A program made the position numbers and the translations under genes. From assembly GCA_964507075.1 (NCBI GenBank), contig CAZDOL010000003.1:30246-59172 (forward strand): a DNA stretch of 28,927 nt, written 5' to 3'. Positions 950-26,784 of this stretch are shown here, piece after piece. The notes under the pieces were generated by a model. It worked only from the letters and a program-made list of their open reading frames with translations, made no database searches and was not told where the DNA came from. Origin of the DNA: an uncultured Gammaproteobacteria bacterium (lineage in GTDB: Bacteria; Patescibacteriota; Patescibacteriia; UBA2591; UBA6264). Every line of letters starts with the position of its first letter. The stretch's first letter is position 1.

Positions 950-3538
950 TTAAATGTTTTTTAGTTTCATTTTTTTATTAATAAATAAAAGTTTACCTAA
1001 CTCAATAGCTAGAAGATTGAACAAGCCGATGCTAATCAATATCAACCAATCATAGATATTAAGCGGAATTAACTTAAGAATATTTTGGAGAAATGGAAAA
1101 TAAACAGCTAAAGCTATCATCAGAAAGCCAAAGATTACGCTTATGATAAGGAAACTGTTATCAAATATATTGTATCTCCATATTGATTTTTTTAAATTTT
1201 TACAGGAAAAAATATAGAATAAACTATCAACGCCGATGGCTGCGAAAACCATAGTACGGATATGGTTTATTTCCCATCCTGCTTTATAAAAATAAATAAA
1301 TAATCCAAATAAAACCAAGGAAGTAATTGTACATATAACGCCAACAAGGAACTTTATTTCTTTGTTTAAAATCTTATTTTCAGATTTTTTAATTTTTTCT
1401 TGTAGAATATCTTTTTTTTCTTTTTCATAAGACAAAGCCATGGCAGGCAAGGTATCTTCAACAATATTTATCCAGAGGATTTGAGCAGCCAATACTGGCA
1501 AAGGAAAACCAAATAATAACGCTCCACCGATTAGGATAAATTCTGAAAAGCTACCACTTAACAGGAAAAGAATTACCTTTTGAATATTTTTAAAAATATT
1601 TCGTCCAGTTTTTATAGCTTCAACAATAGTTTTAAAATTATCGTCAAGGAGCACAATGTCTGCGGTTTCTTTAGTTACCTCTGTTCCTGAGCCCAAAACA
1701 ATTCCAATGTCAGCTGCCTTAATAGCTGGAGCGTCATTTATCCCATCTCCAGTCATAGCTACTATTTCGCCCTGATCTTGTAGGATTTTAACTATTCTTA
1801 TTTTGTGTTTAGGTTCAACTCGCGCGAAAACGTTTACCTTTTTTATTTTTTCTCTTAATTCTTCATCAGAAATTTTGTCTAAATCTTGTCCTTCTAAAAT
1901 TTCTTCATTATTTTTCAAAAGCCCAATTTCTTGAGCAATCGTTTGAGCTGTCAATTTATGATCTCCTGTCACGATCAAGGGACGGATACCAGCTAATTGG
2001 CAGGCCCGAATAGTTTCTTTGATGCCCGGCCTCAAAGGATCTTTAAGGGCGATTAAGCCTACGAAATTAAGGTTTTCTATTTTTTCTTGATTTAATTTTT
2101 TAACGCTCGTTTCCTTGCTAGCAACAGCAAGAACGCGGAGTCCTTTTTTGGTTAGAATTTCAAATTCTTTTTTAATCTTATTTTTTTCTTTTGAGCCAAG
2201 CTCACAAAGGTTTAATATCTTTTCTGGAGCTCCTTTTACAAAAATGATTTGTTTACTTGATTGCGAATCAAGATGAAGAGTTGCCATATACATGTTTTCT
2301 GAATCAAATGGAATTTCATCAATTCTTGTATAATGGGTCATAACCTTTTCCCTGTTAAGTCCAGATTGTAACGCAGCTTTTAGGAGCGCCGTTTCGGTTG
2401 TATCTCCTTTTATTTTCCATTCCTGTAAAGGATCTTCTGAATTTTCAATAATAGCATCATTGCATAGAATACTAATGTTGAATAACTCTTCTGAGTTTCT
2501 TTTTAAATATGGAATTATTTTATGGACAGTCATTTTACCCTCAGTGAGGGTTCCAGTTTTATCAGTAGCAATAATTGTGATTGACCCTAAAGTTTCAGCA
2601 GCAATTAGTTTTTTGACTAAAGCATTCTTCTTTAAGATTTTTTGCATACCAATGGCAAGACAAATAGTAACAGCAATAACCATTCCTTCGGGAATACCTG
2701 CCACTGCTACCGCTACAGATGTTAAAAGCATTTCAGACAAAGAATATCCCCTTAACATTCCGGTTAAAAATAAAAGAACGCATAATCCTCCTAGAATTAT
2801 GCTAACGTTTTTAGCTAAGGATGTTATTTTTTTCTGGAGCGGAGTTTTAACATTTTTTGTTTCTTTTATTAAATTTGCAATATGTCCTAATTCAGTGTTG
2901 TGACTTGTGGCAATTACTACAGCTTTTCCTTTGCCACGTACAATATCGGTTCCAAAATATACCATATTTTCCCGATCAGCCAAACTTACGCCCTTTTCAA
3001 GAATATCTATTTTTTTGAGAGAGGTAACTGATTCTCCCGTGAGATGAGCTTCGCGAGCTTGTAAATTATAGGTTTCTATAAGACGAGCGTCAGCTGGAAC
3101 AATGTCCCCAGCTTCTAAAATAATGATATCTCCAGGAACGATTTTATTATTTGGTATAACACTTATATTCCCTCCCCTTATTATCTTGGCTGAATAATGG
3201 ACTAATTCCTTTAAACGTAAAAAAGTTTTTTCTGCTTTATTTTCTTGGAAAAATCCAATACTGGCATTTATTAAAAGGGCAACGAAAATTATACCAGCAT
3301 CGGTAAATTCTTTTAAGAGAAAAGATATAATGCTAGCTATTATTAAAACGTAGACCAAAGGAGTTTTGAATTGATCTATAAATATTTCTCCAGCTGAAAA
3401 TCTTTTTTGAGAAGGGAGCTCATTTAATCCATATTTTTTAAGACGTTTTTTTACTTCTATTCCTGAAAGCCCGTTTTCAGAGGTTTTTAATATTTGTTGA
3501 ATTTTTGAACCTGATAAATTGTGCCAAATTGAATTCAT
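950..3538 (-). CDS. P-type cation-transporting ATPase, P2 (Ca2+ pump-like)
   Basis: 862-aa ORF with TGES, the DKTGTLT phosphorylation site, IPEGM in M4 and the MTGDGINDAPA hinge. It has multiple C-terminal TM helices. Confidence 0.9.
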   Translation of the reverse strand: MNSIWHNLSGSKIQQILKTSENGLSGIEVKKRLKKYGLNELPSQKRFSAGEIFIDQFKTPLVYVLIIASIISFLLKEFTDAGIIFVALLINASIGFFQENKAEKTFLRLKELVHYSAKIIRGGNISVIPNNKIVPGDIIILEAGDIVPADARLIETYNLQAREAHLTGESVTSLKKIDILEKGVSLADRENMVYFGTDIVRGKGKAVVIATSHNTELGHIANLIKETKNVKTPLQKKITSLAKNVSIILGGLCVLLFLTGMLRGYSLSEMLLTSVAVAVAGIPEGMVIAVTICLAIGMQKILKKNALVKKLIAAETLGSITIIATDKTGTLTEGKMTVHKIIPYLKRNSEELFNISILCNDAIIENSEDPLQEWKIKGDTTETALLKAALQSGLNREKVMTHYTRIDEIPFDSENMYMATLHLDSQSSKQIIFVKGAPEKILNLCELGSKEKNKIKKEFEILTKKGLRVLAVASKETSVKKLNQEKIENLNFVGLIALKDPLRPGIKETIRACQLAGIRPLIVTGDHKLTAQTIAQEIGLLKNNEEILEGQDLDKISDEELREKIKKVNVFARVEPKHKIRIVKILQDQGEIVAMTGDGINDAPAIKAADIGIVLGSGTEVTKETADIVLLDDNFKTIVEAIKTGRNIFKNIQKVILFLLSGSFSEFILIGGALLFGFPLPVLAAQILWINIVEDTLPAMALSYEKEKKDILQEKIKKSENKILNKEIKFLVGVICTITSLVLFGLFIYFYKAGWEINHIRTMVFAAIGVDSLFYIFSCKNLKKSIWRYNIFDNSFLIISVIFGFLMIALAVYFPFLQNILKLIPLNIYDWLILISIGLFNLLAIELGKLLFINKKMKLKNI

Positions 3539-3583
3539 TTGGATATATTTTATTAATTAATAATTACTTATGGTATAAAAAAA

Positions 3584-3654
3584 TACCCCCTGTAGGAATC
3601 GGACCTACGTCAACTGCTTAAAAGGCAGCTGCTCTACCATTGAGCTAAGGGGGC
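3584..3654 (-). tRNA. tRNA-Lys (anticodon UUU)
   Basis: Hand-folded cloverleaf on the minus strand: acceptor GCCCCCU/AGGGGGU (one G-U pair), D arm GCUC..GAGC, anticodon stem GCUGC/GCAGU with loop CUUUUAA, T arm GUAGG-UCCGAUU-CCUAC. No encoded CCA. Confidence 0.85.
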
Positions 3655-3789
3655 ACCAACTTCGCTTCGATTTACATCGAAGCTCCGATGGGCAAGTAAA
3701 CACCTTAATATTGATACTTGTCCTTTCGAAGCTCAAGTGCAAATTTGAGCGTAGGAGGAAGCTAAGGGGGCTTATAGTTTTAAGAATAT

Positions 3790-4014
3790 TTACCATCCAC
3801 TTCTTTTTTCAAGCAAAAATGTTCCTATTGTTTTGCTTTTGAGCGTAAAATTTCTACCAGCTCTGTCTTCAAATTTAACTTCACCTGACATTTGAACGGC
3901 CTGAAAAAGAGAAAAAGCTTCATCAAAGCTTAAAACATAAGCTAAATGCTCAGCGCCTTTATGAGCGTTATTTTTATAATTTACAATATAGCCATGAATA
4001 TTTTTTTGAGGCAT
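3790..4014 (-). CDS. hypothetical small protein (74 aa)
   Basis: ORF track gives 3790..4050, but that start is a TTG. The first ATG (MPQKNIHGY...) is at 4014. No family recognised. Confidence 0.45.
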   Translation of the reverse strand: MPQKNIHGYIVNYKNNAHKGAEHLAYVLSFDEAFSLFQAVQMSGEVKFEDRAGRNFTLKSKTIGTFLLEKRSGW

Positions 4015-4170: not shown

Positions 4171-6855
4171 ATGGCTAAGTCTGAAAAAATTATTGAAAAA
4201 CTTCCTCCTCAAAATATTGAAGCCGAACAAGCAGTGCTTGGGTCTTTGTTGATTGACAAAGATGCTATTGTTAGGGTAGCTGATATAATTGTGTCTGAAG
4301 ATTTTTATAAAGATATTCATCAGATAATTTATTCAGCTATGTTAGTGGTTTGGGAGCAAAGGGAACCGATTGATATTTTAAGCATAGCTAATCGTTTAGA
4401 GGAAAAAAAGAAGTTGGATTTGGTTGGTGGACGTAGTTATTTAGCTTCTTTAGCTAACATCGTTCCCACTTCTAGTCATATCACTTCTTATGCTCAAATT
4501 GTACAGAAAAAATCAATTTTAAGGAAAGCAATCAAAGCATCTACGGAAATAGTGAGAATGGCTTATGAAGAAGAAACAGATGCTCTTAAGGTTTTAGATA
4601 AAGCTGAACAAAAATTATTTGATATTTCTCAAAAGTTCGCTAGGCAAAATTTTACTTCTTTAAAAGATACTTTAGCTAATTCTTTTGAGAGATTAGATGA
4701 ATTACAGAAAGGAGATAGATCCATTAGGGGCATTTCAACTGGATTTACAGCTTTAGATAATGTTCTGGCTGGTCTGCAAAAATCAGAATTAATAATTCTA
4801 GCTTCTCGTCCTTCTGTCGGAAAGAGTAGCTTGGCTTTGGATATCGCGCGCAATGCAGCTGTTGCTAATAAAGCGCCAGTTGGTATTTTTAGTTTAGAAA
4901 TGTCTAAAGAACAGGTTAGTGATAGAATGATTTGCGCCGAATCAGGGGTCAATCTTTGGCAATTGCGTACGGGCCGATTTTCCAAAAGTAAAGGAGATGG
5001 CGATTTCAAAAAATTAGGCAAAGCCATTGGACTTTTAGCCGAAGCTCCTGTTTATATTGATGATTCTGCAACCCTTACAATAGCTGAAATAAGAGCAAAG
5101 GCCAGAAGATTGCAATTTGAACATAAGATTGAATTATTGATAGTTGATTATTTACAATTGATGGAAGGAGATAGGGCTAGAGATGGAAGGGTTCAAGAGG
5201 TTTCGGAAATTTCACGTGGATTAAAGGCAGTTGCTCGTGATTTGAATATTCCTGTTTTAGCTCTTTCTCAACTTTCTCGTGCTCCTGAAGCTCGCACTCC
5301 AGCTATTCCTCGTTTGTCTGATTTGCGTGAAAGTGGTTGCTTGACTGGCGACACCCTCATTACTAAAGCTGATACAGGCGAGCGTATTTCTATAAAAGTT
5401 TTAGCTGAAAGAAAAAAACAAATACCGTTTCCTGTCATGGCTGTTGAGGATGATTATAAGGTAAAGCAACATTCTATGGTTAAGGTGTTTTCGTCTGGAA
5501 AGAAAATGGTTTTTGAATTGAAAACACGCAGTGGCAGAAAAATTAAAGCATCAGCTAATCATCCATTTCTGCGCTTAAATGGTTGGACGAAGTTGGGTCA
5601 GTTAAAAACAGGAGATTATCTTGCTCTCCCAAGAAATTTTTCTCCCAAAAAGTCTAAGAATCCTTTAAATAATAAAGAATTGATTTTGTTAGCTCATCTT
5701 TTGGGCGATGGTTGCATTTTGCCGAATCAACTTTTCCATTATACTAGTGCTGACGAAGAAAATATAGAAAGCGTAAGGCAAGCTGCTAAACAAATTTTTA
5801 ATATTAACGGAAGGATAGTTAAGCAAAAGAATTGGTGGCACATTTATTTGACTAGCCCATATCATCTCACTCATGGGAAATATCATCCCATTACTAATTG
5901 GTTCAAGAAGCTTAATATTGAAAGAGTTCATTCGTGGAAAAAGAAAATATCTGATGCTGTTTTTCAATGCGACAACAAGCATATTGCGCTCTTTTTAAAA
6001 CATTTATGGGCAACAGATGGTAATTTAAGCTGGAAACGTATACCCAAAAGAAAACCAGCAGGTGAGATTTATTACGCCAGCAGTAGCGAGATTTTAGTTC
6101 ATCAAGTTCAACATCTTTTATTGCGATTAAATATTCAAAGTTCTTTGAGGGAGATTTCGTCAAAAAAATATAGGACAATGTATCATGTTTATGTTGAGGG
6201 TTCAACCGAACAATTGAAATTTCTTTCCCAAGTAGGTATAGCGGGCAAAAAACGCCATATTATTCCCGACATGGTTATAGCTTTAAAAGAAATCAACCCA
6301 AACCCAAATGTTGATATTATACCAAAGCAAGCATGGAAAATAATTATTGAACCAGCGAAAATTGCTGTGGGCGTTAGCTGGCGTGATGTTTGTCGGGGGA
6401 TAGACACTGCTTATTGTGGGAGCACTCTTTTTAAGAGTGGTTTAAGCAGGAATAGGATGATGAGAGTGTATAATTTTTTAAAAATTCCCATGTTATATAA
6501 TCTTGCTACTTCCGATGTATTTTGGGATAGAATAATCTCTATCAAGAAATTAGGAGTGGAAGAAGTGTATGACGCTACAGTTAAAGGCGCTCATAATTTT
6601 GTCGCTAATGATATTATATTACATAATAGCTTAGAGCAGGATAGTGATGTTGTTATGTTTATTTATCGTAAGTTTATGGATAAAGGTATTAAAAATTGTC
6701 CAGAAGAAGACAAGAATATTGCTGAAATTCATATTTCTAAGCATAGACATGGTCCAGCAGGAATAATGGTGCCCCTATATTTTGATAATGCTACTGCTAG
6801 TTTTAAAAATTTAGATAAGGCGCACACCGAAGGGATAACGGAAGATCCATTTTAA
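4171..6855 (+). CDS. dnaB: replicative DNA helicase DnaB, interrupted by an intein
   Basis: 894-aa ORF with an N-terminal DnaB domain, Walker A SRPSVGKSS and Walker B LLIVDYLQL. The conserved motif is split into LSDLRESG and SLEQDSDVVMFIYR by a 430-aa insertion. Confidence 0.95.
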   Translation: MAKSEKIIEKLPPQNIEAEQAVLGSLLIDKDAIVRVADIIVSEDFYKDIHQIIYSAMLVVWEQREPIDILSIANRLEEKKKLDLVGGRSYLASLANIVPTSSHITSYAQIVQKKSILRKAIKASTEIVRMAYEEETDALKVLDKAEQKLFDISQKFARQNFTSLKDTLANSFERLDELQKGDRSIRGISTGFTALDNVLAGLQKSELIILASRPSVGKSSLALDIARNAAVANKAPVGIFSLEMSKEQVSDRMICAESGVNLWQLRTGRFSKSKGDGDFKKLGKAIGLLAEAPVYIDDSATLTIAEIRAKARRLQFEHKIELLIVDYLQLMEGDRARDGRVQEVSEISRGLKAVARDLNIPVLALSQLSRAPEARTPAIPRLSDLRESGCLTGDTLITKADTGERISIKVLAERKKQIPFPVMAVEDDYKVKQHSMVKVFSSGKKMVFELKTRSGRKIKASANHPFLRLNGWTKLGQLKTGDYLALPRNFSPKKSKNPLNNKELILLAHLLGDGCILPNQLFHYTSADEENIESVRQAAKQIFNINGRIVKQKNWWHIYLTSPYHLTHGKYHPITNWFKKLNIERVHSWKKKISDAVFQCDNKHIALFLKHLWATDGNLSWKRIPKRKPAGEIYYASSSEILVHQVQHLLLRLNIQSSLREISSKKYRTMYHVYVEGSTEQLKFLSQVGIAGKKRHIIPDMVIALKEINPNPNVDIIPKQAWKIIIEPAKIAVGVSWRDVCRGIDTAYCGSTLFKSGLSRNRMMRVYNFLKIPMLYNLATSDVFWDRIISIKKLGVEEVYDATVKGAHNFVANDIILHNSLEQDSDVVMFIYRKFMDKGIKNCPEEDKNIAEIHISKHRHGPAGIMVPLYFDNATASFKNLDKAHTEGITEDPF
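5338..6627 (+). mobile_element. DnaB intein with LAGLIDADG homing-endonuclease domain (aa 390-819 of the ORF)
   Basis: Starts with Cys (CLTGDTLI, block A). Block B is KASANHPF. The two LAGLIDADG-type motifs are LLAHLLGDGCI and FLKHLWATDGNL. It ends HNFVANDIILHN followed by the +1 Ser. Removing it restores the canonical RESG-S(L)EQD DnaB motif. Confidence 0.9.
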
Positions 6856-8563: not shown

Positions 8564-9502
8564 ATGGAAATTGTTGAGATTAAAAATCAAAAAGATTGGA
8601 AAGATGGGAGTCAGTTTTTGCAATCCTGGCAATGGGGAGATTTTCAACAAAAATTGGGACGCAAAATATGGCGTTGGGCGATCAAAAAAGAGGGAAAGAC
8701 AATTATTCAGACCTTAATTATCAAGCGTCAATTGCCATTGGATCTTAGTTATTTATATTGTCCGCGAGGACCCTTTTTTCAGGACGATTACAACAAAGAA
8801 GCTTCAGAGTTATTAATGATCAGGATTAAATCTATAGCTAAAAAAGAAAAAGCAATTTTTTTTCGCTTAGAGCCACTGAAAGAGGTGGGCATGGTTTCTC
8901 CCAATTTGCAAGTTGATTCGATTCAACCCCATCAAACTGCTCTTCTGGATTTAACAGTGTCGGGGGATGAGATTTCAAAGAAAATGCATTCCAAAACCAG
9001 ATATAATATTCGTTTGGCTAAAAGAAAAGGAGTTGTAATCCAAGAAAGCAAAGATATAGAATCCTTTTGGAGCTTATTAAAACAAACCACTCAAAGAGAA
9101 AAATTCAAATCACACATTTTTTCTTATTATAAAAAATTATTAGATTGTCCATTTACTAAATTGTATTTAGCAAAATATAAGGATAGAATTTTATCAGCTC
9201 ATTTGATTATATTTTTTAACAAAACAGCCTTTTATGTTCATGGGGGGTCTTCGCGGGAATTTCAGCAAGTTATGGCGCCTCATCTTTTGCATTGGCATGT
9301 CATTAAGAAAGCCCAAAGTATGGGATATAAATTTTATGATTTTTGGGGTATTGATGAAAAAAAATGGCCGGGATTTACTAAATTTAAAATGAGTTTTGGG
9401 GGAGAAAAAATTGTTTATCCAGGTACTTTTGATTTACCTTTTTCGTCCTTTTGGTATACTTTATATAAGATAGGCAAGAACATTAGAACATGGGAACATT
9501 AG
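8564..9502 (+). CDS. FemAB-family peptidoglycan interpeptide-bridge aminoacyltransferase
   Basis: FLQSWQWGDFQ N-terminal motif and overall FemABX-like layout. The ATG at 8564 is preferred over the TTG at 8534 of the ORF track, because that extension is encoded by repeat R1. Confidence 0.75.
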   Translation: MEIVEIKNQKDWKDGSQFLQSWQWGDFQQKLGRKIWRWAIKKEGKTIIQTLIIKRQLPLDLSYLYCPRGPFFQDDYNKEASELLMIRIKSIAKKEKAIFFRLEPLKEVGMVSPNLQVDSIQPHQTALLDLTVSGDEISKKMHSKTRYNIRLAKRKGVVIQESKDIESFWSLLKQTTQREKFKSHIFSYYKKLLDCPFTKLYLAKYKDRILSAHLIIFFNKTAFYVHGGSSREFQQVMAPHLLHWHVIKKAQSMGYKFYDFWGIDEKKWPGFTKFKMSFGGEKIVYPGTFDLPFSSFWYTLYKIGKNIRTWEH

Positions 9503-9615
9503 AACATTAGAACATTAGAACAGTTCAACAATTAACAATCAACAATTTTCGTTTGGAATTTGGAATTTTGAACATTTGGTATTGTTTAGGATTTGAGATT
9601 TAGGATTTAGGATTT
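9478..9615. repeat. cascade of four short tandem-repeat blocks
   Basis: GAACATKR x6 (9478-9525), AACAATY x3 (9527-9547), TGGAATT x2 (9554-9567), one more GAACATT (9570-9577), RRGATTT x4 (9588-9615). Confidence 0.9.
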
Positions 9616-9625
9616 ATTTTTATTT

Positions 9626-10558: not shown

Positions 10559-11162
10559 AACAATTCTTTTGGCAATGATGCCGATTAATGAATTGAGGGG
10601 AACTATCCCAATTGCTATCTTACTTTTTGAATTAACCCCTTTGAAGGCTTTTTTTCTGGCTTGCCTTGGCAATATGTTGCCTATTGTTTTTTTGCTCTGG
10701 TTTTGGAAATATTTGTCTGAGAACTGGGCGTCTAAAAATAAATTGGTAAAGAAATTTTTAAAATGGATTTTTCAAAGAACCAGAAAACGCTTTTATAAGA
10801 ACCTTCCTCGCTCCGCTCGAAAGAACCTTGTTACTCGCTTCGCTCGTAATAAAAACCTTCCTCGCTCCGCTCGAAAGAACCTTGTTACTCGCTTCGCTCG
10901 TAATAAGAACCTTCCTCGCTCCGCTCGAAAGAACCTTGTTACTCGCTTCGCTCGTAATAAAAAATATGCGATTTGGGTAGACTTAGGTCTAATTTTGTTG
11001 GTGGCTATTCCATTGCCATTTACTGGGGCTTGGACTGGGAGTATTGCTGCTTTTCTTTTTGGAATTTCTTACGGTCGCAGTTTAGGCCTTATTTCAATAG
11101 GGGTTTTAATCGCTGGTGCGGTAGTAACCATAATAACTACAGGAATTTATTCTTTCTTATAA
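10542..11162 (+). CDS. small multidrug export family (COG2426-like) membrane protein with repeat-derived loop insertion
   Basis: INELRGTIPIA at the N terminus and VAIPLPFTGAWTGS in the C half fit the family. AGGAG lies before the ATG. The central loop contains 3 x 18 aa (KNLPRSARKNLVTRFARN). Confidence 0.65.
   Translation: MWLEIKTILLAMMPINELRGTIPIAILLFELTPLKAFFLACLGNMLPIVFLLWFWKYLSENWASKNKLVKKFLKWIFQRTRKRFYKNLPRSARKNLVTRFARNKNLPRSARKNLVTRFARNKNLPRSARKNLVTRFARNKKYAIWVDLGLILLVAIPLPFTGAWTGSIAAFLFGISYGRSLGLISIGVLIAGAVVTIITTGIYSFL
10800..10961 (+). repeat. 3 tandem copies of a 54-nt unit (AAGAACC repeat family, copy R2), in frame inside the CDS
   Basis: Units at 10800, 10854 and 10908. Each unit is itself two related sub-repeats (24 + 30 nt) that begin (A)AGAACCTT. 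The copies differ only at the last unit base, position 54 (a/g). Confidence 0.9.
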
Positions 11163-11169
11163 ATATAAA

Positions 11170-11940
11170 ATGAAAAAATCAATTATTGTGGCTAATTGGA
11201 AAATGAATCTAGTTGGTCCCAGTGCTAAAAATTTGGCAAAGAACATCAAAGAACAATCCCGGGGCATTAACGACATGGATATTGTGCTTTGTCCTTCTTT
11301 TCTTGACATAGAGGCCATTGCGGAAATATTAAAGGATCAAAAAATTCTTAAGTTATTTTTGGGAGCTCAAGATTGTTTTTGGAAATTAAAAGGAAATTTT
11401 ACCAGCGGAATTTCACCATCTTATTTAAAGAGTATGGGATGCGATTATGTTATTTTAGGTAATTCAGAAAGGCGTAAATATTTTCAAGAGACAGATGAAA
11501 TGGTTAACCATAAGGTACAAGCATCTTTATTGGCTGGTTTAACGCCGATCATTTGTGTAGGAGAAACCATGGAGGAAAGAAAGAAAGGCATTAAGGATTA
11601 CATTGTTTTGGGGCAAATTTCTTCCGCCTTTAAAGGTATTAATTTAAGAGCTATACAGAAAATTGTTATTGCCTATGAGCCAGTTTGGGTTATGGGTTCA
11701 ACACAAATAATTGAACCCGAGGAGGCAATATATATGCACAAAATAATTATGCAAAGAATGATTGATCTTTATCCTTTGCCATTGGTTAATAATAATATTA
11801 GATTTATTTATGGGGGGAGCGTTAACTCTGACAACATGGGTTCGTTTTTTGAAAAGGGATTAACTGACGGATTTTTGATTGGGAAAGCCAGCTTAGAGGC
11901 AGATGAATTTATTAATATGTGTAGTTTAATTAAAAGATAA
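11170..11940 (+). CDS. tpiA: triosephosphate isomerase
   Basis: IVANWKMN start, catalytic-region AYEPVWVMGS, YGGSV near the C terminus. Confidence 0.9.
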   Translation: MKKSIIVANWKMNLVGPSAKNLAKNIKEQSRGINDMDIVLCPSFLDIEAIAEILKDQKILKLFLGAQDCFWKLKGNFTSGISPSYLKSMGCDYVILGNSERRKYFQETDEMVNHKVQASLLAGLTPIICVGETMEERKKGIKDYIVLGQISSAFKGINLRAIQKIVIAYEPVWVMGSTQIIEPEEAIYMHKIIMQRMIDLYPLPLVNNNIRFIYGGSVNSDNMGSFFEKGLTDGFLIGKASLEADEFINMCSLIKR

Positions 11941-12432: not shown

Positions 12433-12456
12433 GAACATTGGAACATTGGAACATAA
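12433..12456. repeat. GAACATTG x3 tandem repeat
   Basis: gaacattg gaacattg gaacataa. This is the same 8-mer family as at 9478-9525. Confidence 0.8.
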
Positions 12457-12580: not shown

Positions 12581-13861
12581 TTATTTTGTTTTTTTTAATA
12601 TATCAATTACTTTACGATTCGTTAACAAATTTTTCAAATAATTTTTTCCAGATTCAGTAGCAAAATTTTTTAATAGTTCTTCTTGGTTTTTGTATAATTT
12701 TGATATTTTTTTTATTTCTTCTTCGCTTTCTTCTTCGCTTACGGTTATCTTTTCCTTTTGAGCAATTTCGCGAATACATAAAGCGCTTTTTATTCTTTCT
12801 TCTGCCTTGGGAATAAATTGTTTTTGTAATGATTCAACGCTACCCTTAATACTTTGGAGATAATCTTCAAATTTCCCCGAAGATTGTTCAATAGAAGCCT
12901 TTAATTCTTCTATCATTTTATTTATTTCATTGTCAATAAGTATTTTTGGCATTTCTTCAAATTGAGTTTGTTTAATCAACTCTTGTAAAATTTCTACTTC
13001 TCGTCGTTGTTCTTCTTTGAGGCGAGCATTTTCTTCTAAATTTTCTTTTATTTTCTCTTTAAGATTTTCTAAGGAATTAAATTTTCCTACGCTTTGAGCA
13101 AATTGGTCGTCAATTTTAGGTAAATCAATATTGTATACACTGTTAATTTTTACTTTAAAATCAATAAGTTTGCCAGCAGTTTGTTTGTCTGGATGAGATT
13201 CGGGATAGCAAAATGAAAATTCGGTTTGTTCATTTTTTCCTAAACCAATAATTTTATCATTTAGGCCAGGGAAATATTCTTTTCCCGAACCTAAAATTAA
13301 GGAGAAATTTTTGATTTGTCCATTCTCCAAGGGAACTTTGTCGTGAAATAATTCTAAATCGACGCTTGCTTTGTCGCCTTTTTTGGCTTTGCGTGAAACT
13401 AATGTTTCTTTGCCACGCATAGTTTGCAATTCTGAAATTACTTTTTCTATTTGGTTATTTTCAATTTTAGTTTTTTTCTCTGATATTTTTATATTTTTAT
13501 AATTCCCTAATTTAATTTTTGGAATCAGAGGAATTTTTAATTTGAAAATTAAAGGATTATTTGGCGCAAGTTTGATTATTTCAACTTGTGGGGGAGCTAC
13601 GGGTTCTAATTTTTCTTGCTTGATAATTTCAGGATATTTTTTGTTAATGGCTAAATCAGCCATCTCTTCCAAGATTTTCAATGGAGATATCCTTTGTTTC
13701 AATATTTCGTTTGGAATTTTTCCTGGACGAAATCCCTCTACTTTAGTATTGAGAGATAAGTTATTCAATGCTTTTTCCTCAAATTCAGATATTTCTGTGA
13801 CTGACAGTTCAACAGTAATCTCAATTAAATTTTGTGGAAATTTTTTGGCCTCAACTTTCAT
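12581..13861 (-). CDS. tig: trigger factor
   Basis: MKVEAKKFPQNLIEITVELS... with GFRPGKIP in the ribosome-binding N domain. The ORF-track start at 13903 is a TTG that would overlap nusA by 53 nt, so the ATG at 13861 is preferred. Confidence 0.9.
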   Translation of the reverse strand: MKVEAKKFPQNLIEITVELSVTEISEFEEKALNNLSLNTKVEGFRPGKIPNEILKQRISPLKILEEMADLAINKKYPEIIKQEKLEPVAPPQVEIIKLAPNNPLIFKLKIPLIPKIKLGNYKNIKISEKKTKIENNQIEKVISELQTMRGKETLVSRKAKKGDKASVDLELFHDKVPLENGQIKNFSLILGSGKEYFPGLNDKIIGLGKNEQTEFSFCYPESHPDKQTAGKLIDFKVKINSVYNIDLPKIDDQFAQSVGKFNSLENLKEKIKENLEENARLKEEQRREVEILQELIKQTQFEEMPKILIDNEINKMIEELKASIEQSSGKFEDYLQSIKGSVESLQKQFIPKAEERIKSALCIREIAQKEKITVSEEESEEEIKKISKLYKNQEELLKNFATESGKNYLKNLLTNRKVIDILKKTK

Positions 13862-15137
13862 CTTTTTTCTTTTTGACAGTTTTCTTTTTAACTTTTTTGA
13901 CAACCTTTTCTTTTTTAACCTTTTCTTTCTTAACCTTTTCTTTCTTTTTTATTTTTTCTTTTATTTCCCCGTCTTCTTTTTCTTTCTCAATTTTTTCTTT
14001 TTTTTCTTCCTCCTCAATATATTCCTTAATATTAATTTTCCAGCCCGTTAATCTGGCAGCTAATCTAACATTTTGGCCAGATTTCCCAATAGCCAAAGAG
14101 AGTTGATCTTGCTTTACTTTAACCAAAGCTATTTTTTCTTTTTTGTTAATTTTTATTGACGAAATTTTGGCTGGAGAAAGTGCGTTGGATATAAATTCTT
14201 GGGAATCTTCAGAGTATCTAATAATATCTATTTTTTCTCCTCCAGACTCCGCGATAATTGTTTGGATTCTTATCCCTTTTTGACCAACGCAACTACCAAT
14301 TGGGTCTAAATTTTTTTCTTCAGTCCAAACAGCCACCTTAGAACGTGAACCAGGTTCGCGAGCAATAGCTTTAATTTCTACGGAATTATTGGCTACTTCT
14401 GGGATTTCAATTTTAAATAGTTCTTTTAGAATTTCTGGATGACGTCTGGAAACAATAATTTCTGGGCCCTTAGATCCCTGATTGACTGACATTATAAAAA
14501 CTTTTATTTTTTGATCTGAAGAATATCTTTCTTCTAATATTTGTTCATGTGAAGGTAAGATAGCAGTGGTATCTCCTAAGTCAATAAAAGTGGTATATTT
14601 CTCTTGTCTTTGTACAGTTGCATTAATTACTTTTCTTTCTTGGCCTTTATATTTTTGAAAAATTATTTCTCGTTCTGCTTCTCTTAATCTCTGAGTAATA
14701 ACTTGTTTGGCGGTTTGAGCTGCTATTCGCCCAAATTCTGATGGCACCTCTAAAGGAGTTTTGATGATGTCTCCAATTTTAACTTTATTTTTAGCAATTT
14801 TTTTATTATTAGGGCGCAGTAGCTTAGCTTCAGAAATTTGTATCTCGGTTCGCGGATTAAAACGTTTTTTTTCTTGTTTTTCTTCTTTGTCATTATTTTC
14901 AGTTTCTTCTTCAGTTTCTTCTTCGTCTAAAACATCCTCAACCACGGTCTTAATATCAAAGACCTTCATTCCTTTGTTTTCGGGGTTAAATTTAACTTTA
15001 ATGTTTTGATTTTTTTCGCCGAAATCTTTACGAAAAGCTGCTGCCAAAGCTTGTTCTATGGCCTCTAAAACCTGCTCTGGAGAGAGATTTTTTTCTTCGC
15101 AAATTTGTTGTATGGCGGACAAAATAGTAGATTCCAT
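13851..15137 (-). CDS. nusA: transcription termination/antitermination factor NusA with Lys/Glu-rich C-terminal tail
   Basis: NusA N-terminal domain (LEAIEQALAAAFRK), then an S1 domain and two KH domains (GPIGSCVGQKG, LAIGKSGQNVRLA). There is an acidic insert near aa 70-95 and a KE-rich tail. Confidence 0.9.
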   Translation of the reverse strand: MESTILSAIQQICEEKNLSPEQVLEAIEQALAAAFRKDFGEKNQNIKVKFNPENKGMKVFDIKTVVEDVLDEEETEEETENNDKEEKQEKKRFNPRTEIQISEAKLLRPNNKKIAKNKVKIGDIIKTPLEVPSEFGRIAAQTAKQVITQRLREAEREIIFQKYKGQERKVINATVQRQEKYTTFIDLGDTTAILPSHEQILEERYSSDQKIKVFIMSVNQGSKGPEIIVSRRHPEILKELFKIEIPEVANNSVEIKAIAREPGSRSKVAVWTEEKNLDPIGSCVGQKGIRIQTIIAESGGEKIDIIRYSEDSQEFISNALSPAKISSIKINKKEKIALVKVKQDQLSLAIGKSGQNVRLAARLTGWKINIKEYIEEEEKKEKIEKEKEDGEIKEKIKKKEKVKKEKVKKEKVVKKVKKKTVKKKKDES

Positions 15138-20858: not shown

Positions 20859-21623
20859 ATAGGGACAGTCACCCCATTTTAATCTGCCTTAATCAAGCCA
20901 CTTTTGGTCTGCCAGATGACGAAATAATTAATTTTCTTTTATAAAGACATTCTAAATTTTCAATGAAATTTTTATCACCCAATGGTCGGCCAGTTAAAAC
21001 ATGGTTCTCAATTTCTTTAATTATTTCTTTTTTATTTTCCTTTTCAAGATATTCTCGCCAATTATTTATTCCGATTAATTCATTTATGTCAGCTAAAGTA
21101 ATGCCATTTTGATCTTTACCTTTTAGTCCTTTTATGTGAGCACTAGCGCTTGACCATCGCCAATCCCAAGCTTTCTCAACCAGTCCTGCTTTTACTGGAT
21201 TTCTTTCTACATATCTAATGGCAACATAAAAATGTTTTTCATCCAAAACACAAGAATAAAAGCGATCTTGCCACAAGTGTCCTCTAAAATTATGTTTTTT
21301 ATTAAAAAATTGTGAATATAGTCCGTGAGCCACGCCAAAACTTTTGGCTAATGAATCCTCTTTTTGAGGAGTGGCAATAAAATGAACGTGGTTTGGCATT
21401 AAAGAATAAGCAAAAATTAAAAGTAGATATCTTTTACAATACTCCTCAATCCAATTGAGATATTGTGTGAAGTCTTTTTGAGATCTAAAAGTTTTTTGTT
21501 TGTAGTTGCCTCGTTGAGTTATATGGTGAGGATAACCAACAGCAACTAATCTAGCAATTCTTGACATAATAGTCTAATTTTCGGCTTAAATAAGGGCTTA
21601 GAAAATAGGGTGACTGTCCCTAT
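20859..21623 (-). mobile_element. Y1 (HUH) transposase unit bounded by 22-nt inverted REP-like repeats
   Basis: Left end atagggacagtcaccccatttt (20859-20880). Right end aaaatagggtgactgtccctat (21602-21623). They match in 21/22 positions in inverted orientation. Confidence 0.65.
20893..21567 (-). CDS. IS200-like / REP-associated tyrosine transposase (Y1 HUH family)
   Basis: HHITQRGN, the HUH motif MPNHVHF, RYVERNPVKAGLV with the catalytic Tyr, and WRWSS. Confidence 0.85.
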   Translation of the reverse strand: MSRIARLVAVGYPHHITQRGNYKQKTFRSQKDFTQYLNWIEEYCKRYLLLIFAYSLMPNHVHFIATPQKEDSLAKSFGVAHGLYSQFFNKKHNFRGHLWQDRFYSCVLDEKHFYVAIRYVERNPVKAGLVEKAWDWRWSSASAHIKGLKGKDQNGITLADINELIGINNWREYLEKENKKEIIKEIENHVLTGRPLGDKNFIENLECLYKRKLIISSSGRPKVA

Positions 21624-26199: not shown

Positions 26200-26232
26200 A
26201 TTAGTTTTAATTTAATTATTATAAATCTCAAG

Positions 26233-26272
26233 TGGGCGTAGCAGGATTTGAACCTGCGACATCCACTTTATA
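26233..26272 (-). pseudogene. orphan tRNA-Ile 3' half (positions 34-73)
   Basis: Part of the exact 58-nt duplicate 26215..26272 = 26331..26388. On the minus strand, upstream of position 34, it joins unrelated sequence. Confidence 0.85.
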
Positions 26273-26348
26273 TCAACAACTACGATTATTATATATTGTA
26301 TGGTTGTTGTTTGATATATCGATAACAATCATTATTATAAATCTCAAG

Positions 26349-26421
26349 TGGGCGTAGCAGGATTTGAACCTGCGACATCCACTTTATAAGAGTGGCGCTC
26401 TGACCCCTGAGCTATACGCCC
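26349..26421 (-). tRNA. tRNA-Ile (anticodon UAU)
   Basis: Acceptor GGGCGUA/UACGCCC, D arm GCUC-AGGGGUCA-GAGC, anticodon stem CCACU/AGUGG with loop CUUAUAA, T arm GCAGG-UUCAAAU-CCUGC, discriminator A. No encoded CCA. Confidence 0.85.
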
Positions 26422-26465
26422 ATATTTACGCCCACTTGAAATTGTAATAAAGAAGAAGTTATCGC

Positions 26466-26502
26466 TATAAGAGTGGCGCTCTGACCCCTGAGCTATACGC
26501 CC
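26466..26502 (-). pseudogene. orphan tRNA-Ile 5' half (positions 1-37), copy 2
   Basis: Identical to 26385..26421. The identity continues 16 nt into the leader, so 53 nt are identical in total. Confidence 0.85.
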
Positions 26503-26545
26503 ATATTTACGCCCACTTAAGACAGTAATAAAAAGAAGTTATCGC

Positions 26546-26602
26546 TATAAGAGTGGCGCTCCCTGCCTACCGGCAGGCAGGTGACCCCTGAGCTATACGC
26601 CA
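26546..26602 (-). pseudogene. orphan tRNA-Ile 5' half, copy 3, with a 20-nt hairpin insertion in the D loop and a changed position 1
   Basis: Same as copy 2 except for the insertion cctgcctaccggcaggcagg (26562-26581) and G1 changed to U. Confidence 0.8.
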
Positions 26603-26784
26603 GTATTTAATTATTTAGAGGTCGAACCTCTGAACTTTTAAATATTTTGTAGTATATTTATAATAACATTTTAGGGCATGATGTCAAAATATGTTTTTCT
26701 TGTTAAAAGATTTGATTTTGTTATAATAATATAAACGTTAAGTCAAGAATAACTAATTTAATTATTTTTTTAATTTTAGACATT

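Follow-up and report, generated by a model that had tools for sequence, protein, structure and literature searches.

A tRNA-Ile(UAU) gene probably nested within the anticodon loop of an older tRNA-Ile gene in an uncultured bacterium

We analyzed a 28,927-nt stretch of DNA from an uncultured bacterium (the window; contig CAZDOL010000003.1 of GenBank assembly GCA_964507075.1) in which a tRNA-Ile(UAU) gene is surrounded by partial copies of tRNA-Ile sequence. This locus is probably a nest, in which one tRNA gene occupies the anticodon loop of an older gene for the same kind of tRNA, the older gene having been split by a cassette lacking an open reading frame (ORF). The ancestor would have been a single tRNA-Ile(UAU) gene of one sequence type (type 2), located between ruvB and the gene of a small membrane protein. 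An ORF-less cassette of ~190 nt would then have inserted at the anticodon-loop TATA of this gene, bringing with it a complete tRNA-Ile(UAU) gene of another type (type 1), inverted repeats of ~37 nt through which the leader pairs with the 3' end of the tRNA and its trailer, and a short hairpin segment rich in AT. With TATA left on both sides, the old gene would have been broken into two orphans, a 5' half (nt 1-37) and a 3' half (nt 34-73), and the cassette's own tRNA would have assumed the function. Later, in the lineage of the window, the orphans may have been turned into type 1 by gene conversion from the functional copy, an additional 5' half (unit 2) may have arisen by unequal crossing-over between the orphan and functional 5' halves, and a 20-nt palindrome (PAL) may have entered the D-loop of the outer orphan. 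We found no published description of either a nested tRNA cassette or PAL-marked tRNA copies.

Anatomy of the tRNA-Ile array

ARAGORN called a tRNA-Ile(tat) at 26348-26421 on the minus strand, and the Rfam tRNA model scored 76.1 bits for 26349-26421 on the same strand. This intact, functional-looking type 1 gene (26349..26421, minus strand), also supported by its identity in siblings, would be the cargo of the cassette. No Rfam family besides tRNA matched the array at the gathering or E-value threshold; the insert gave no match at these thresholds in a test for the group I catalytic core. The 18-nt trailer and the right arm of the cassette (IR-R) occupy 26319..26348 on the minus strand, as judged by arm pairing and covariation. 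IR-R also takes in tRNA nt 67-73, and its terminus, GTTATCGA, is followed by TATA at 26315-26318. An AT-rich hairpin segment of 42 nt (TCAAACAAC...GTTGTTGA; 26273..26314, minus strand) comes next, with TATA on each side; it could be the right-hand end of the insert or else a small insertion of its own. The segment is kept in siblings, where it is expanded to a varying degree, and within the window and the loci examined, further copies of it or of the left arm occurred at the orthologous locus only. Exact repeats identify the orphan 3' half of the older gene (nt 34-73, TATA first; 26233..26272, minus strand), which adjoins ORF80 at its original position, and a second copy of the 18-nt trailer (26215..26232, minus strand). 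Together they make 26215-26272 identical to 26331-26388 at 58/58 positions, the content being tRNA nt 34-73 plus the trailer.

On the other side of the intact gene, the left arm of the cassette (IR-L, 44 nt; 26422..26465, minus strand) was delimited by shuffles, folding and covariation and lies directly after TATA in the array. Unit 2 follows at 26466..26502 (minus strand); recognized by its identity to unit 1, it is another orphan 5' half (nt 1-37) and lacks PAL. Repeat analysis placed a second, 43-nt copy of the left arm at 26503..26545 (minus strand), which with unit 2 forms an extra 80-nt unit. Unit 2 is probably a secondary duplicate produced by unequal crossing-over. The outer orphan, unit 3 (26546..26602, minus strand), ends in TATA and holds nt 1-37 of the older tRNA-Ile gene at its original position. 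It carries an insertion of 20 nt at 26562-26581 and, once this is set aside, matches type 1 at 36/36 positions, with position 1 altered and position 2 polymorphic. The tandem units of ~81 nt start at 26385 (TRF period 81, 2.2 copies), and the first 53 nt of unit 1 recur unchanged in unit 2.

These searches (ARAGORN, Rfam, TRF and repeats) confirmed the intact tRNA, the 3' copy, the 5' units and the insertion in unit 3 that the original prediction had described. Its observation that all junctions share TATA also held: the 5' copies terminate in CTTATA followed by GCGATAAC, and the 3' copy opens where TTGA is followed by TATAAAGTGG. The junction of units 2 and 3 is common by descent, so that the independent breakpoints number only two rather than three or four.

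The locus is real. The same 585-nt interval from ruvB to ORF80 is present in a single-cell genome (GCA_000405165.1), in several JGI metagenomes and in ENA MEGAHIT assemblies, with one SNP at nt 2 of unit 3 as the sole difference. An assembly artefact was ruled out by the recurrence of this interval in independent assemblies. The gene context (RuvB, L27 and FtsW) identifies the organism as bacterial.

IR-L is an imperfect inverted copy of the tRNA 3' end, the trailer and 11 nt more, a match reached in 0/2000 shuffles. Folding gave -59.4 kcal/mol (z -7.5), and the arms of the cassette form 31 pairs, with 92.8% paired as opposed to <=48% when the arms are slid. Six arm pairs were changed on both sides in a compensatory manner, and the covariation score of the arms was 0.169 as opposed to 0.085, a value reached by 0/500 shuffles. 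Palindrome-correcting template switching, instead of selection, could have produced these compensatory changes. At its ends the cassette reads TATA, GCGATAAC...GTTATCGA, TATA, with the inverted repeats abutting a short duplicated target, as in MITEs. Two points had been absent from the original prediction, namely the recurrence of the 20-nt insertion elsewhere and the identity of the 44-nt "leader" as an inverted copy of the 3' flank.

A promoter-like site, TTGACA-16-TATTAT with TG (11/12 matches), was predicted at 26660..26687 on the minus strand, ~57 nt upstream of unit 3, and was the only good promoter found for the array. The block ttgacat...ttattataaat lies upstream of the tRNA in every sibling, including the empty allele described below, and the predicted site thus appears to be the native promoter of the old gene. 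No minus-strand terminator was predicted within the array, so read-through from the upstream promoter is likely. The old leader also contains a small palindrome, AGAGGTCGAACCTCT (26614..26634). At this position, two filled siblings (L217 and L220) have another sequence that is still palindromic, and the empty allele has none.

Sibling alleles and alternative origins of the partial copies

In the relative L228, the site is occupied by one plain type 2 tRNA-Ile(UAU) gene, and orphans are absent. The intergenic region of L228 and L229 measures 271 nt, with the single type 2 gene and no orphans. L217, a relative with 96% RuvB identity, has a filled allele in which the type 2 gene is cut at the anticodon TATA. 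Its insert is ~190 nt long, has TATA on each side and no ORF, and contains an intact type 1 tRNA-Ile(UAU) between covarying inverted repeats. The order is type 2 nt 1-37 (36/36), TATA, GCGATAAC...type 1 tRNA (73/73)...GTTGTTGA, TATA and the type 2 3' half. The 3' orphan of L217 is type 2 at 36/40 positions, with hairpin insertions, and the type 2 halves match the inner gene at only 28/36. In-situ duplication is therefore excluded as the source of the halves, which are of the other sequence type.

The inner tRNA was identical at 73/73 positions in six alleles (the window, L217, L218, L219, L220 and L222). The orphans of siblings showed identities of 35/37, 33/34 and 29/34, and some were lost or interrupted. 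By these comparisons, the inner tRNA appears to be constrained and the orphans to be decaying. Siblings have 0, 1 or 2 orphan 5' halves, which are type 2, type 1 or chimeric, with PAL present or absent; as for the 3' orphan, L217 has a type 2 homologue, and those of L218 and L219 are chimeric. In a RuvB neighbor-joining tree, the filled L230 and L010 formed the outgroup, and the empty allele fell within a group of filled alleles. This position implies loss, excision or re-gain of the cassette, with the reservation that the tree is crude and that allelic recombination could equally have put the empty allele inside the clade.

The unrelated contig L152 offers an independent case, in which a tRNA-Ile(UAU) of yet another kind is enclosed by terminal inverted repeats of 10 bp that match perfectly. 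TTATA borders this unit on one side; on the other lies TATA together with a decayed tRNA-Ile 3' half that starts from nt 34. The window, L217 and L152 thus have in common a short identical core, TATA, inside the tRNA at either junction. No second copy of the cassette was found at another locus in the 29-kb window and the loci examined, and mobility is accordingly deduced from the parallel in L152, the heterologous halves and the occurrence of both filled and empty sites.

Comparison with siblings, which the original prediction had proposed, yielded empty, filled and converted alleles and supported insertion at TATA, not a split tRNA. Among the earlier suggestions, an integration scar came closest to the truth: sibling alleles bear out an insertion into the anticodon TATA, which recurs on either side of the insert. 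The part that failed was the remnant of an integrase-bearing island, as the insert is a ~190-nt ORF-less cassette with a whole tRNA-Ile gene. Repeated integration and excision also fell away, the orphans being the two halves of one interrupted older gene. Classical scars, in which phage or island integrases with an anticodon-loop att site would have integrated and excised repeatedly and the cargo would later have been deleted, are very unlikely. The anticodon loop is reportedly a recognized sublocation of integration, and a large serine recombinase lies beside a broken tRNA-Lys in L131. However, Pfam scans of 20 ORFs revealed no tyrosine or serine recombinase, and no integrase was found, in the 29-kb window; in this search, the RuvB, Glycos_transf_4 and ATP-grasp proteins were identified from precomputed Pfam hits, and three ORFs (950-3538, 11170-11940 and 12581-13903) were judged only by eye. 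The "cargo" consists of an entire tRNA gene and is no island remnant. Integrase attP sites bear the 3' part of a tRNA and duplicate that part only, so they leave no 5'-half orphans, but both 5' and 3' orphans exist here. Moreover, both orphans of L217 are type 2 and its inner gene is wholly type 1, and thus not a hybrid. IMG/VR gave no exact match to the 3' or the 5' half, by which a phage attP with tRNA halves was rejected, and the type 1 halves had no hit in viral contigs.

Local duplication, by which slippage or unequal crossing-over at TATA would have made all partial copies from one gene, is slightly less credible still. Over 53 nt, unit 2 is a recent and perfect duplicate of unit 1, and the number of units varies across siblings. 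This process offers no route to type 2 halves around a type 1 gene, as in L217, nor to the non-duplicated 44-nt and 58-nt flanks, which are mutually inverted copies. As the primary cause it is refuted by the sequence comparison of L217 with L228. Unequal crossing-over, another of the earlier proposals, is retained for the extra unit 2 and dropped for the remaining partial copies. A functional arrangement, in which the halves and the helix would be retained for some use, such as forming a two-piece tRNA, providing decoy RNAs or giving RNase III a stem at which to process a long transcript and free the inner tRNA, seems to us the least probable of all. It could draw on the compensatory changes in the helix, on the likely read-through across an array with no predicted minus-strand terminator, and on a formal resemblance to archaeal split tRNAs, in that IR-L, which lies after each 5' half, is complementary to IR-R, which is upstream of the 3' half. 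But the intact inner tRNA lies between IR-L and IR-R, and the 3' half is 46 nt away from IR-R. The empty allele does without halves and helix, and to our knowledge the archaeal splicing endonuclease is absent from bacteria. The split-tRNA system entertained in the original prediction is disfavored by the presence of an intact gene (76 bits) invariant in six alleles, by orphans that decay, are lost or interrupted in siblings and carry hairpin insertions, and by the acceptor end of unit 3, which is damaged, mismatched and polymorphic in the population. A processing role of the helix alone is possible and compatible with the nested-gene explanation.

Capture during break repair is also unlikely, if less so than these three. 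An anticodon-loop break, possibly made by a homing nuclease, an enzyme often encoded at loci of this type, would have been end-joined at TATA microhomologies, capturing foreign DNA with a tRNA-Ile gene, and the survivors would be those captures that restored tRNA-Ile function. The cassette lacks an enzyme gene, relatives have homing-type genes adjoining tRNA-Ile or other tRNA genes (L012 and L131), and the 4-nt identity at the junctions fits microhomology. Yet long inverted repeats delimit the insert and directly adjoin TATA at their outer ends, L152 has an independent tRNA-Ile cassette built in the same way, with perfect terminal repeats of 10 bp, and intact tRNAs flanked by inverted repeats recur in loci with small GIY-YIG genes (L140 and the Val tRNA of L152). 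Random capture is disfavored because it does not predict these regularities.

The PAL palindrome and small GIY-YIG loci

If the array arose by insertion of a cassette, as we consider probable, the cassette may be a selfish, self-complementing element, able to break into an essential single-copy tRNA gene since it supplies a substitute. It might spread by transposition into TA or TATA, or by repair of a nuclease-induced break in which the orphan halves act as homology arms. No nuclease, transposase or integrase was found in or adjoining the array. A search with a family profile revealed no GIY-YIG ORF or remnant in the window, its 44-nt and 58-nt spacers, or L010. The only recombinase-like genes in the 29 kb were that of a DnaB intein and, at a distance of 5 kb, that of a RAYT-like Y1 transposase (20893-21567). 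Neither showed any link to the array; the 16-nt repeats flanking the RAYT-like gene occurred nowhere else in the window or loci.

PAL is a GC-rich palindrome of 20 nt (CCTGCCTGCCGGTAGGCAGG on the tRNA strand; 26562..26581) expected 0.00 times in the window. It sits between tRNA nt 21 and 22, in the D-loop of unit 3. The insertion is polymorphic: PAL occupies the same site in L010, L218, L220 and L224 and is missing from the homologous orphan of L217, L222 and L226. The sequence CCTGCCTGCCGGCAGGCAGG is nearly invariant, with covarying variants, and was identical across contigs of 31-67% G+C. A sequencing or linker artefact was rejected on the grounds of its precise positions in host-specific tRNA sequence, its presence in assemblies from different centers and its natural variants. 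PAL is not solely linked to tRNAs: 3 of its 58 occurrences in 47 viral-contig stretches lay in tRNA sequence, namely in a 5' half (L131), a full tRNA-Met (L120) and a truncated tRNA-Met (L092), and among these L131 alone was also beside a GIY-YIG ORF. PAL-bearing tRNA fragments matched no Rfam family at the gathering or E-value threshold, and no published occurrence of the PAL sequence was found. PAL may be a putative nuclease site or a structure-specific mini-element. If the reading proposed here holds, a palindrome so conserved across phyla would have to be recognized by something.

We collected 80 metagenome loci with a small UPF0213-type GIY-YIG nuclease gene. Frequencies in this set are biased upward because the loci were chosen by similarity to two tRNA-linked ORFs; with this bias, an intact tRNA was located <=120 nt from the ORF in 63/80 loci, a partial copy of the adjacent tRNA lay across the ORF in at least 50/80, and PAL was present in 31/80. 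A partial copy was found near 56 of the 91 tRNAs of these loci, as opposed to 0/15 in control loci. PAL-like palindromes occurred in ~50 of 57 partial tRNA copies, with a modal site at nt 20-22, the same D-loop site as in the window. These data link PAL and the nuclease by correlation only. The partial copies ended anywhere from ~nt 22 to nt 74, and a fixed crossover position was rejected as a rule of the family. PAL insertions favored the D-loop, the anticodon loop and the T-loop, the same kinds of positions as archaeal tRNA introns.

The ORFs of these loci encode single-domain UPF0213 proteins of ~80 aa (PDB 1YWL and 1ZG2). Some arrangements had no ORF: in L151, L154 and L199, a 5' part with a palindrome was followed after 31-50 nt by an intact tRNA, and in L187 a palindrome-bearing 5' part preceded an intact tRNA with a 34-nt spacer. 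Intact tRNAs flanked by inverted repeats were seen in L140 (16 bp) and at the Val tRNA of L152 (14 bp). Other enzymes also occurred near tRNAs: a LAGLIDADG-like ORF, read by eye, in L012, and in L131 a GIY-YIG gene together with a group I intron (RF00028, 86 bits) that has an HNH ORF. A tblastn search of plasmids and phages for annotated cultured examples returned only housekeeping-type UPF0213 genes of 35-49% identity, and we found no literature joining small GIY-YIG genes, partial tRNA copies and palindromes.

Two features of this family are present in the window: PAL in the D-loop of a disabled copy, and an intact same-strand copy nearby, downstream of the native promoter. The third, a small GIY-YIG ORF between the disabled and intact tRNAs, is not. 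The cassette may thus be a non-autonomous relative of the tRNA-associated UPF0213 GIY-YIG elements, whose displaced copies also bear PAL. Tentatively, and with somewhat less than even confidence, we suggest an undescribed bacterial class of selfish elements that invade tRNA genes with a functional copy of the interrupted tRNA, the autonomous form encoding a UPF0213 GIY-YIG nuclease of ~80 aa and the non-autonomous form consisting of a tRNA bounded by inverted repeats, with PAL in the displaced copies.

Relation to known systems and significance

Known MITEs and REP/REPIN elements are mobilized in trans, by IS630-type enzymes with TA duplication or by RAYT Y1 transposases. The cassette resembles them as a small non-coding insert with inverted repeats and TA or TATA on both sides, with a RAYT-like gene 5 kb away, but it bears a functional tRNA copy and had no other copies in the sequence examined. 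We know of no MITE or REP that carries a functional copy of the interrupted gene. REPs are also lineage specific, whereas PAL is identical at 31-67% G+C. Group I introns likewise insert in the anticodon loop of bacterial tRNAs, as seen once in L131; the insert here is too short for one, and rescue is by a second gene copy, not by splicing.

Phages, ICEs and islands insert in tRNA genes and restore the displaced part from their own copy, as stated in passages of PMC9897764 that cite Reiter 1989 and Williams 2002. The cassette shares with them the tRNA-gene target (in this case the anticodon loop), tRNA sequence on the insert by which a functional gene is preserved, a displaced partial copy and a short identical core at both junctions. 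Unlike them, it is ~190 nt rather than kilobases long, has no integrase, and has long inverted repeats and a complete gene with flanks, hence orphans of both the 5' and 3' kinds. The SegB gene of phage T4 encodes a free-standing GIY-YIG homing endonuclease and lies among tRNA genes; its proposed spread, as outlined in PMC2330249, involves cleavage of tRNA-gene DNA and copying in with the flanks. PAL-marked tRNA fragments are likewise found beside GIY-YIG genes among tRNAs. However, SegB is a multi-domain, site-specific phage enzyme, whereas the ORFs here are putative nucleases of ~80 aa with a single domain, and the window has no such ORF. We know of no partial tRNA duplication or palindrome associated with SegB.

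Archaea have split and intron-containing tRNA genes, including the Nanoarchaeum halves and non-canonical introns (reviewed in PMC4390854 and PMC4033280). The array resembles these in its interruption at or beside the canonical 37/38 position, formally in the complementarity of the sequences flanking the halves and, as with non-canonical introns, in the small hairpin insertions in the D-, anticodon and T-loops of disabled copies. It differs in the bacterial organism, for which a splicing endonuclease would be unexpected, and in its intact gene and decaying halves, with no evidence of joining.

If our reading is correct, the cassette represents a way to invade and replace an essential single-copy tRNA gene. 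The host could not easily lose an invader that brings its own tRNA copy, which would amount to genetic addiction of a sort and would let lineages exchange one tRNA gene for another; among close relatives, the same locus has tRNA-Ile of type 1 in some and of type 2 in others. It would also account for tRNA gene fragments that annotation pipelines may miscall, and would give a first functional context to the widespread small GIY-YIG proteins of UPF0213, which have solved structures and no known role. The natural empty and filled alleles would then make a mobile-insertion origin of interrupted and split tRNA genes testable in bacteria. If the selfish class is real, it would provide a living model of how tRNA genes become interrupted and split.

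The tRNA-Ile(UAU) array and its sibling alleles

The array on the minus strand between ruvB and a gene for an 80-aa protein (26215-26602) has the composition given in the original prediction. An intact tRNA-Ile(UAU) was called at 26349-26421, also on the minus strand, by ARAGORN and Rfam (76.1 bits). Positions 26215-26272 are an exact 58-nt second copy of tRNA nucleotides 34 to 73 plus the 18-nt trailer, and tandem 81-nt units, each consisting of the leader and nucleotides 1 to 37, start at 26385. Unit 1 is the 5' half of the intact gene, unit 2 is an extra orphan 5' half, and unit 3, the outer orphan, carries a 20-nt insertion (26562-26581) and a changed base 1. The 585-nt interval from ruvB to the 80-aa gene was identical across independent assemblies (one from a single cell, several JGI metagenomes, and ENA assemblies made with MEGAHIT), apart from a single SNP at the acceptor end of unit 3; this agreement shows that the array is real and not the assembly artefact that had been considered. 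As predicted, TATA (the anticodon plus nucleotide 37) is common to all junctions, but the independent breakpoints number only two because the junction of units 2 and 3 is shared by descent.

The DNA is from a patescibacterium; the best named relative of the RuvB encoded in the window, 82% identical, belongs to a metagenome-assembled genome. Sibling loci were fetched via homologues of the adjacent 80-aa protein (75 to 88% identity), yielding about 10 related populations in addition to L010; every sequence used comes from a metagenome or single-cell assembly, and the L218 locus includes an assembly gap. In two siblings, L228 and L229, the locus is plain: a promoter, a single tRNA-Ile(UAU) of a different sequence (GGGCATG..., type 2), and the 80-aa gene. 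In L217, whose RuvB is 96% identical to that of the window, nucleotides 1 to 37 of the type 2 tRNA (36/36 matches to L228) are followed by TATA. The insert then runs from GCGATAAC through 44 nt, an intact tRNA-Ile identical to that of the window (type 1), and its trailer to GTTGTTGA, and it ends at TATA, where the type 2 3' half begins. Since type 2 halves enclose a type 1 gene with TATA on each side, the orphans are the halves of one older gene, split by an insert with a different, complete tRNA-Ile gene.

This arrangement bears on how the partial copies arose. Local duplication, proposed as the source of all of them, cannot yield type 2 halves around a type 1 gene. Unequal crossing-over does not explain the type 2 halves of L217 either, but it is the origin to which we attribute unit 2, and the identity of the window orphans to the inner gene is attributed to gene conversion. 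Of the proposed integration scar, insertion at the anticodon TATA stood, whereas the insert turned out to be a tRNA cassette that lacks a recombinase and leaves both old halves behind. Judged from the alleles, a tRNA-bearing, repeat-bounded, ORF-less cassette has thus been inserted into a resident tRNA gene for the same isoacceptor, at the TATA of its anticodon; the orphans appear to have been subsequently duplicated, converted (itself an attribution), decayed, and invaded by palindromes.

The inner tRNA is identical (73/73) across six alleles, whereas the orphans decay and vary among siblings, being of type 2, type 1, or chimeric sequence. The 5' orphans number none in L219, one in L217, L220, L222, L224, L226, and L230, and two in L218, L010, and the window; the 3' orphan is missing in L220. 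In a simple neighbor-joining tree of one protein, RuvB, the empty allele was nested inside the filled ones, and the insert was therefore gained, lost, or exchanged more than once at this locus. All syntenic relatives (L010-L014, L018, and L217-L231) retain the UAU anticodon here, with at least three sequence types of this tRNA replacing one another between close relatives. In siblings L222 and L223, the 3' orphan is separated from the 80-aa gene by about 430 extra nt (~1175-1600), absent from the others. In L012, an ORF with a LAGLIDADG-like motif, read by eye, stands free directly upstream of the syntenic tRNA (1710-2500, minus strand of the locus), and GAACAT-rich repeats fill the stretch upstream of tRNA-Ile in L011 (~1400-1700). 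Similar short tandem-repeat clusters occur in the window at 9477-9616 and 12433-12454 (AGAACATT, AACAATT, TTTGGAA, and TTTAGGA, with GAACATTG after tRNA-Tyr). A 54-nt tandem repeat (10795-10963; 3.1 copies, 97% identical) encodes an in-frame 18-aa repeat within a small multidrug export family ORF.

Structure of the insert and independent parallels

The 44-nt segment that precedes the inner tRNA repeats, imperfectly and in inverted orientation, the last seven bases of this tRNA and the 29 to 30 nt downstream; the score was reached by 0 of 2,000 shuffles. As RNA, the region is predicted to form a long stem capped by the tRNA (-59.4 kcal/mol; z = -7.5). In seven distinct alleles, the stem pairing held in 92.8% of cells, as opposed to at most 48% when slid; six pairs changed on both sides, with a covariation score matched by none of 500 shuffles. 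At their outer ends, GCGATAAC and GTTATCGA, the arms abut TATA, and a 42-nt AT-rich hairpin segment, next after the arms, likewise lies between TATAs. The stem may be a processing helix or else the terminal-repeat pair of a transposable unit. The only good promoter is situated ahead of unit 3, and terminator prediction gave nothing on the minus strand within the array, so transcription probably reads through the orphans to reach the inner tRNA.

A similar arrangement was found on an unrelated contig (L152), where a third kind of tRNA-Ile(UAU) is enclosed by 10-bp terminal inverted repeats that match perfectly (TCAGCAGTTT and AAACTGCTGA). This cassette, predicted to fold as a rod throughout, is preceded by TTATA and followed by TATA and a decayed tRNA-Ile 3' half starting at nucleotide 34 (31/41 identity to the tRNA of L014). 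Inverted repeats likewise directly flank an intact tRNA in L140 (16 bp) and the tRNA-Val of L152 (14 bp).

Palindromes and tRNA-linked GIY-YIG genes

The insertion in unit 3 is a palindrome, PAL (CCTGCCTGCCGGTAGGCAGG), placed between nucleotides 21 and 22. In the homologous orphan, PAL occupies the same site in L010 (two copies), L218, L220, and L224 and is absent from L217, L222, and L226; it is therefore a secondary, recurrent insertion. PAL is also present in orphan 5' halves of the tRNA-Leu of L017 and the tRNA-Lys of L131, each followed by a small GIY-YIG ORF, and, outside tRNA sequence, in many viral contigs. It was found in 3 of 80 control loci, L010 and L017 included. In two high-G+C viral contigs, a tRNA-Met(CAU) has PAL in its variable loop: ARAGORN still calls a 92-nt tRNA in one (L120, 2239-2330), and the T-arm is deleted in the other (L092, ~8570-8660).

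Several hairpin-insertion families accumulate at the tRNA-Ile locus. A small palindrome lies in the leader of the old gene (26614-26634); this site holds other palindromic sequences in the filled L217 (ggaggccgagccttc) and L220 (gggagtccgactccc) and none in the empty L228. Palindromic insertions of about 20 nt with other sequences (cttaagggtcggacccttaag; atcaggtcattcgacctgat; gcccagtcggatgactgggc) are found downstream of the inner tRNA in L220 and L230 and in the T-loop of the 3' orphan in L217 and L224. In L131 (480-1420), several kinds of elements are stacked on a single tRNA gene. In order, a tRNA-Lys(UUU) 5' half with PAL is followed by the GIY-YIG ORF and another 5' half, after which come a group I intron (RF00028; 86 bits) bearing an HNH-like ORF and, last, a large serine recombinase.

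A metagenome scan with the GIY-YIG ORFs of L017 and L131 yielded 80 loci, a biased sample; in 63 of them an intact tRNA lay no more than 120 nt from the ORF. Partial copies of this tRNA were located upstream of the ORF in 35 loci, downstream in 13, and on both sides in 2. Overall, 56 of 91 tRNAs in these loci had a nearby partial copy, as opposed to 0 of 15 in RuvB control loci. PAL was present in 31 of the 80, and in about 50 of 57 partial copies a loop-encoding position held PAL or a GC-rich palindrome related to it. The D-loop (nucleotides 20 to 22) was by far the most common site; others were at 9/10, in the T-loop and variable loop, and in the anticodon region. PAL variants stay palindromic; in one of them, CCTGTCTRCCGACAGGYAGA, R and Y covary. 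An ORF-less arrangement, consisting of a 5' part with a palindrome, a 31- to 50-nt spacer, and an intact tRNA, was found in L151, L154, L199, and L187 (34-nt spacer in the last). The GIY-YIG ORF belongs to UPF0213 (PDB 1YWL and 1ZG2; SLX1 is distant). In a Komeilibacteria MAG (L023), an ORF of this family (3485-3880) is found immediately upstream of ruvB, and no tRNA was called nearby. In Listeria monocytogenes (NZ_LR134402.1, 109346-109543), a housekeeping UPF0213 gene is annotated beside the gene for tRNA1(Val) (adenine37-N6)-methyltransferase, a hint that the entire family may be tRNA related.

Possible routes of spread

The cassette would be a selfish element that could afford to interrupt an essential gene since it brings the replacement along. 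It might spread by transposition with TA/TATA duplication, the enzyme being supplied in trans, or by homing, in which a nuclease would cut type 2 genes that lack the insert, and the orphan halves on either side of the donor's cassette would provide the homology arms. Both routes fit the data. Because the carried tRNA differs from the interrupted one in the anticodon stem, it could escape a sequence-specific nuclease.

No enzyme gene is encoded at the array locus, and no copy of the window's cassette was found at a second locus in the 29-kb window or the fetched loci. The only recombinase-like genes in the window are a RAYT-like Y1 transposase gene and a DnaB intein, and no evidence was found linking either to the array. 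The former (20893-21567, minus strand) encodes 224 aa that match Pfam Y1_Tnp (2.7e-13) and the NCBIfam REP-associated tyrosine transposase (70.7 bits, whereas the cut-off is 80). Inverted 16-nt repeats, TAGGGACAGTCACCC(C), flank the gene at 20860-20875 and 21607-21622, and its protein is a candidate for the enzyme that would make the hairpin insertions in trans. Its position amid housekeeping genes resembles that of a domesticated RAYT. The intein, with a LAGLIDADG homing-endonuclease domain, splits the DnaB helicase gene (4171-6855, plus strand), a second selfish insertion within 29 kb.

The closest known elements are those that restore their target upon integrating into a tRNA gene (PMC9897764); unlike those, the cassette is tiny, has no recombinase, carries the whole gene, and leaves both old halves. 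In form it is like MITEs; in context, like T4 SegB and other free-standing GIY-YIG homing genes (PMC2330249); and in insertion position, like archaeal interrupted tRNA genes. A full-text literature search returned no paper with the PAL sequence and none in which small GIY-YIG genes are tied to palindromes or to partial copies of tRNAs. The chance is substantial that PAL, GIY-YIG genes, and tRNA cassettes, taken together as a wider system, represent a new class.
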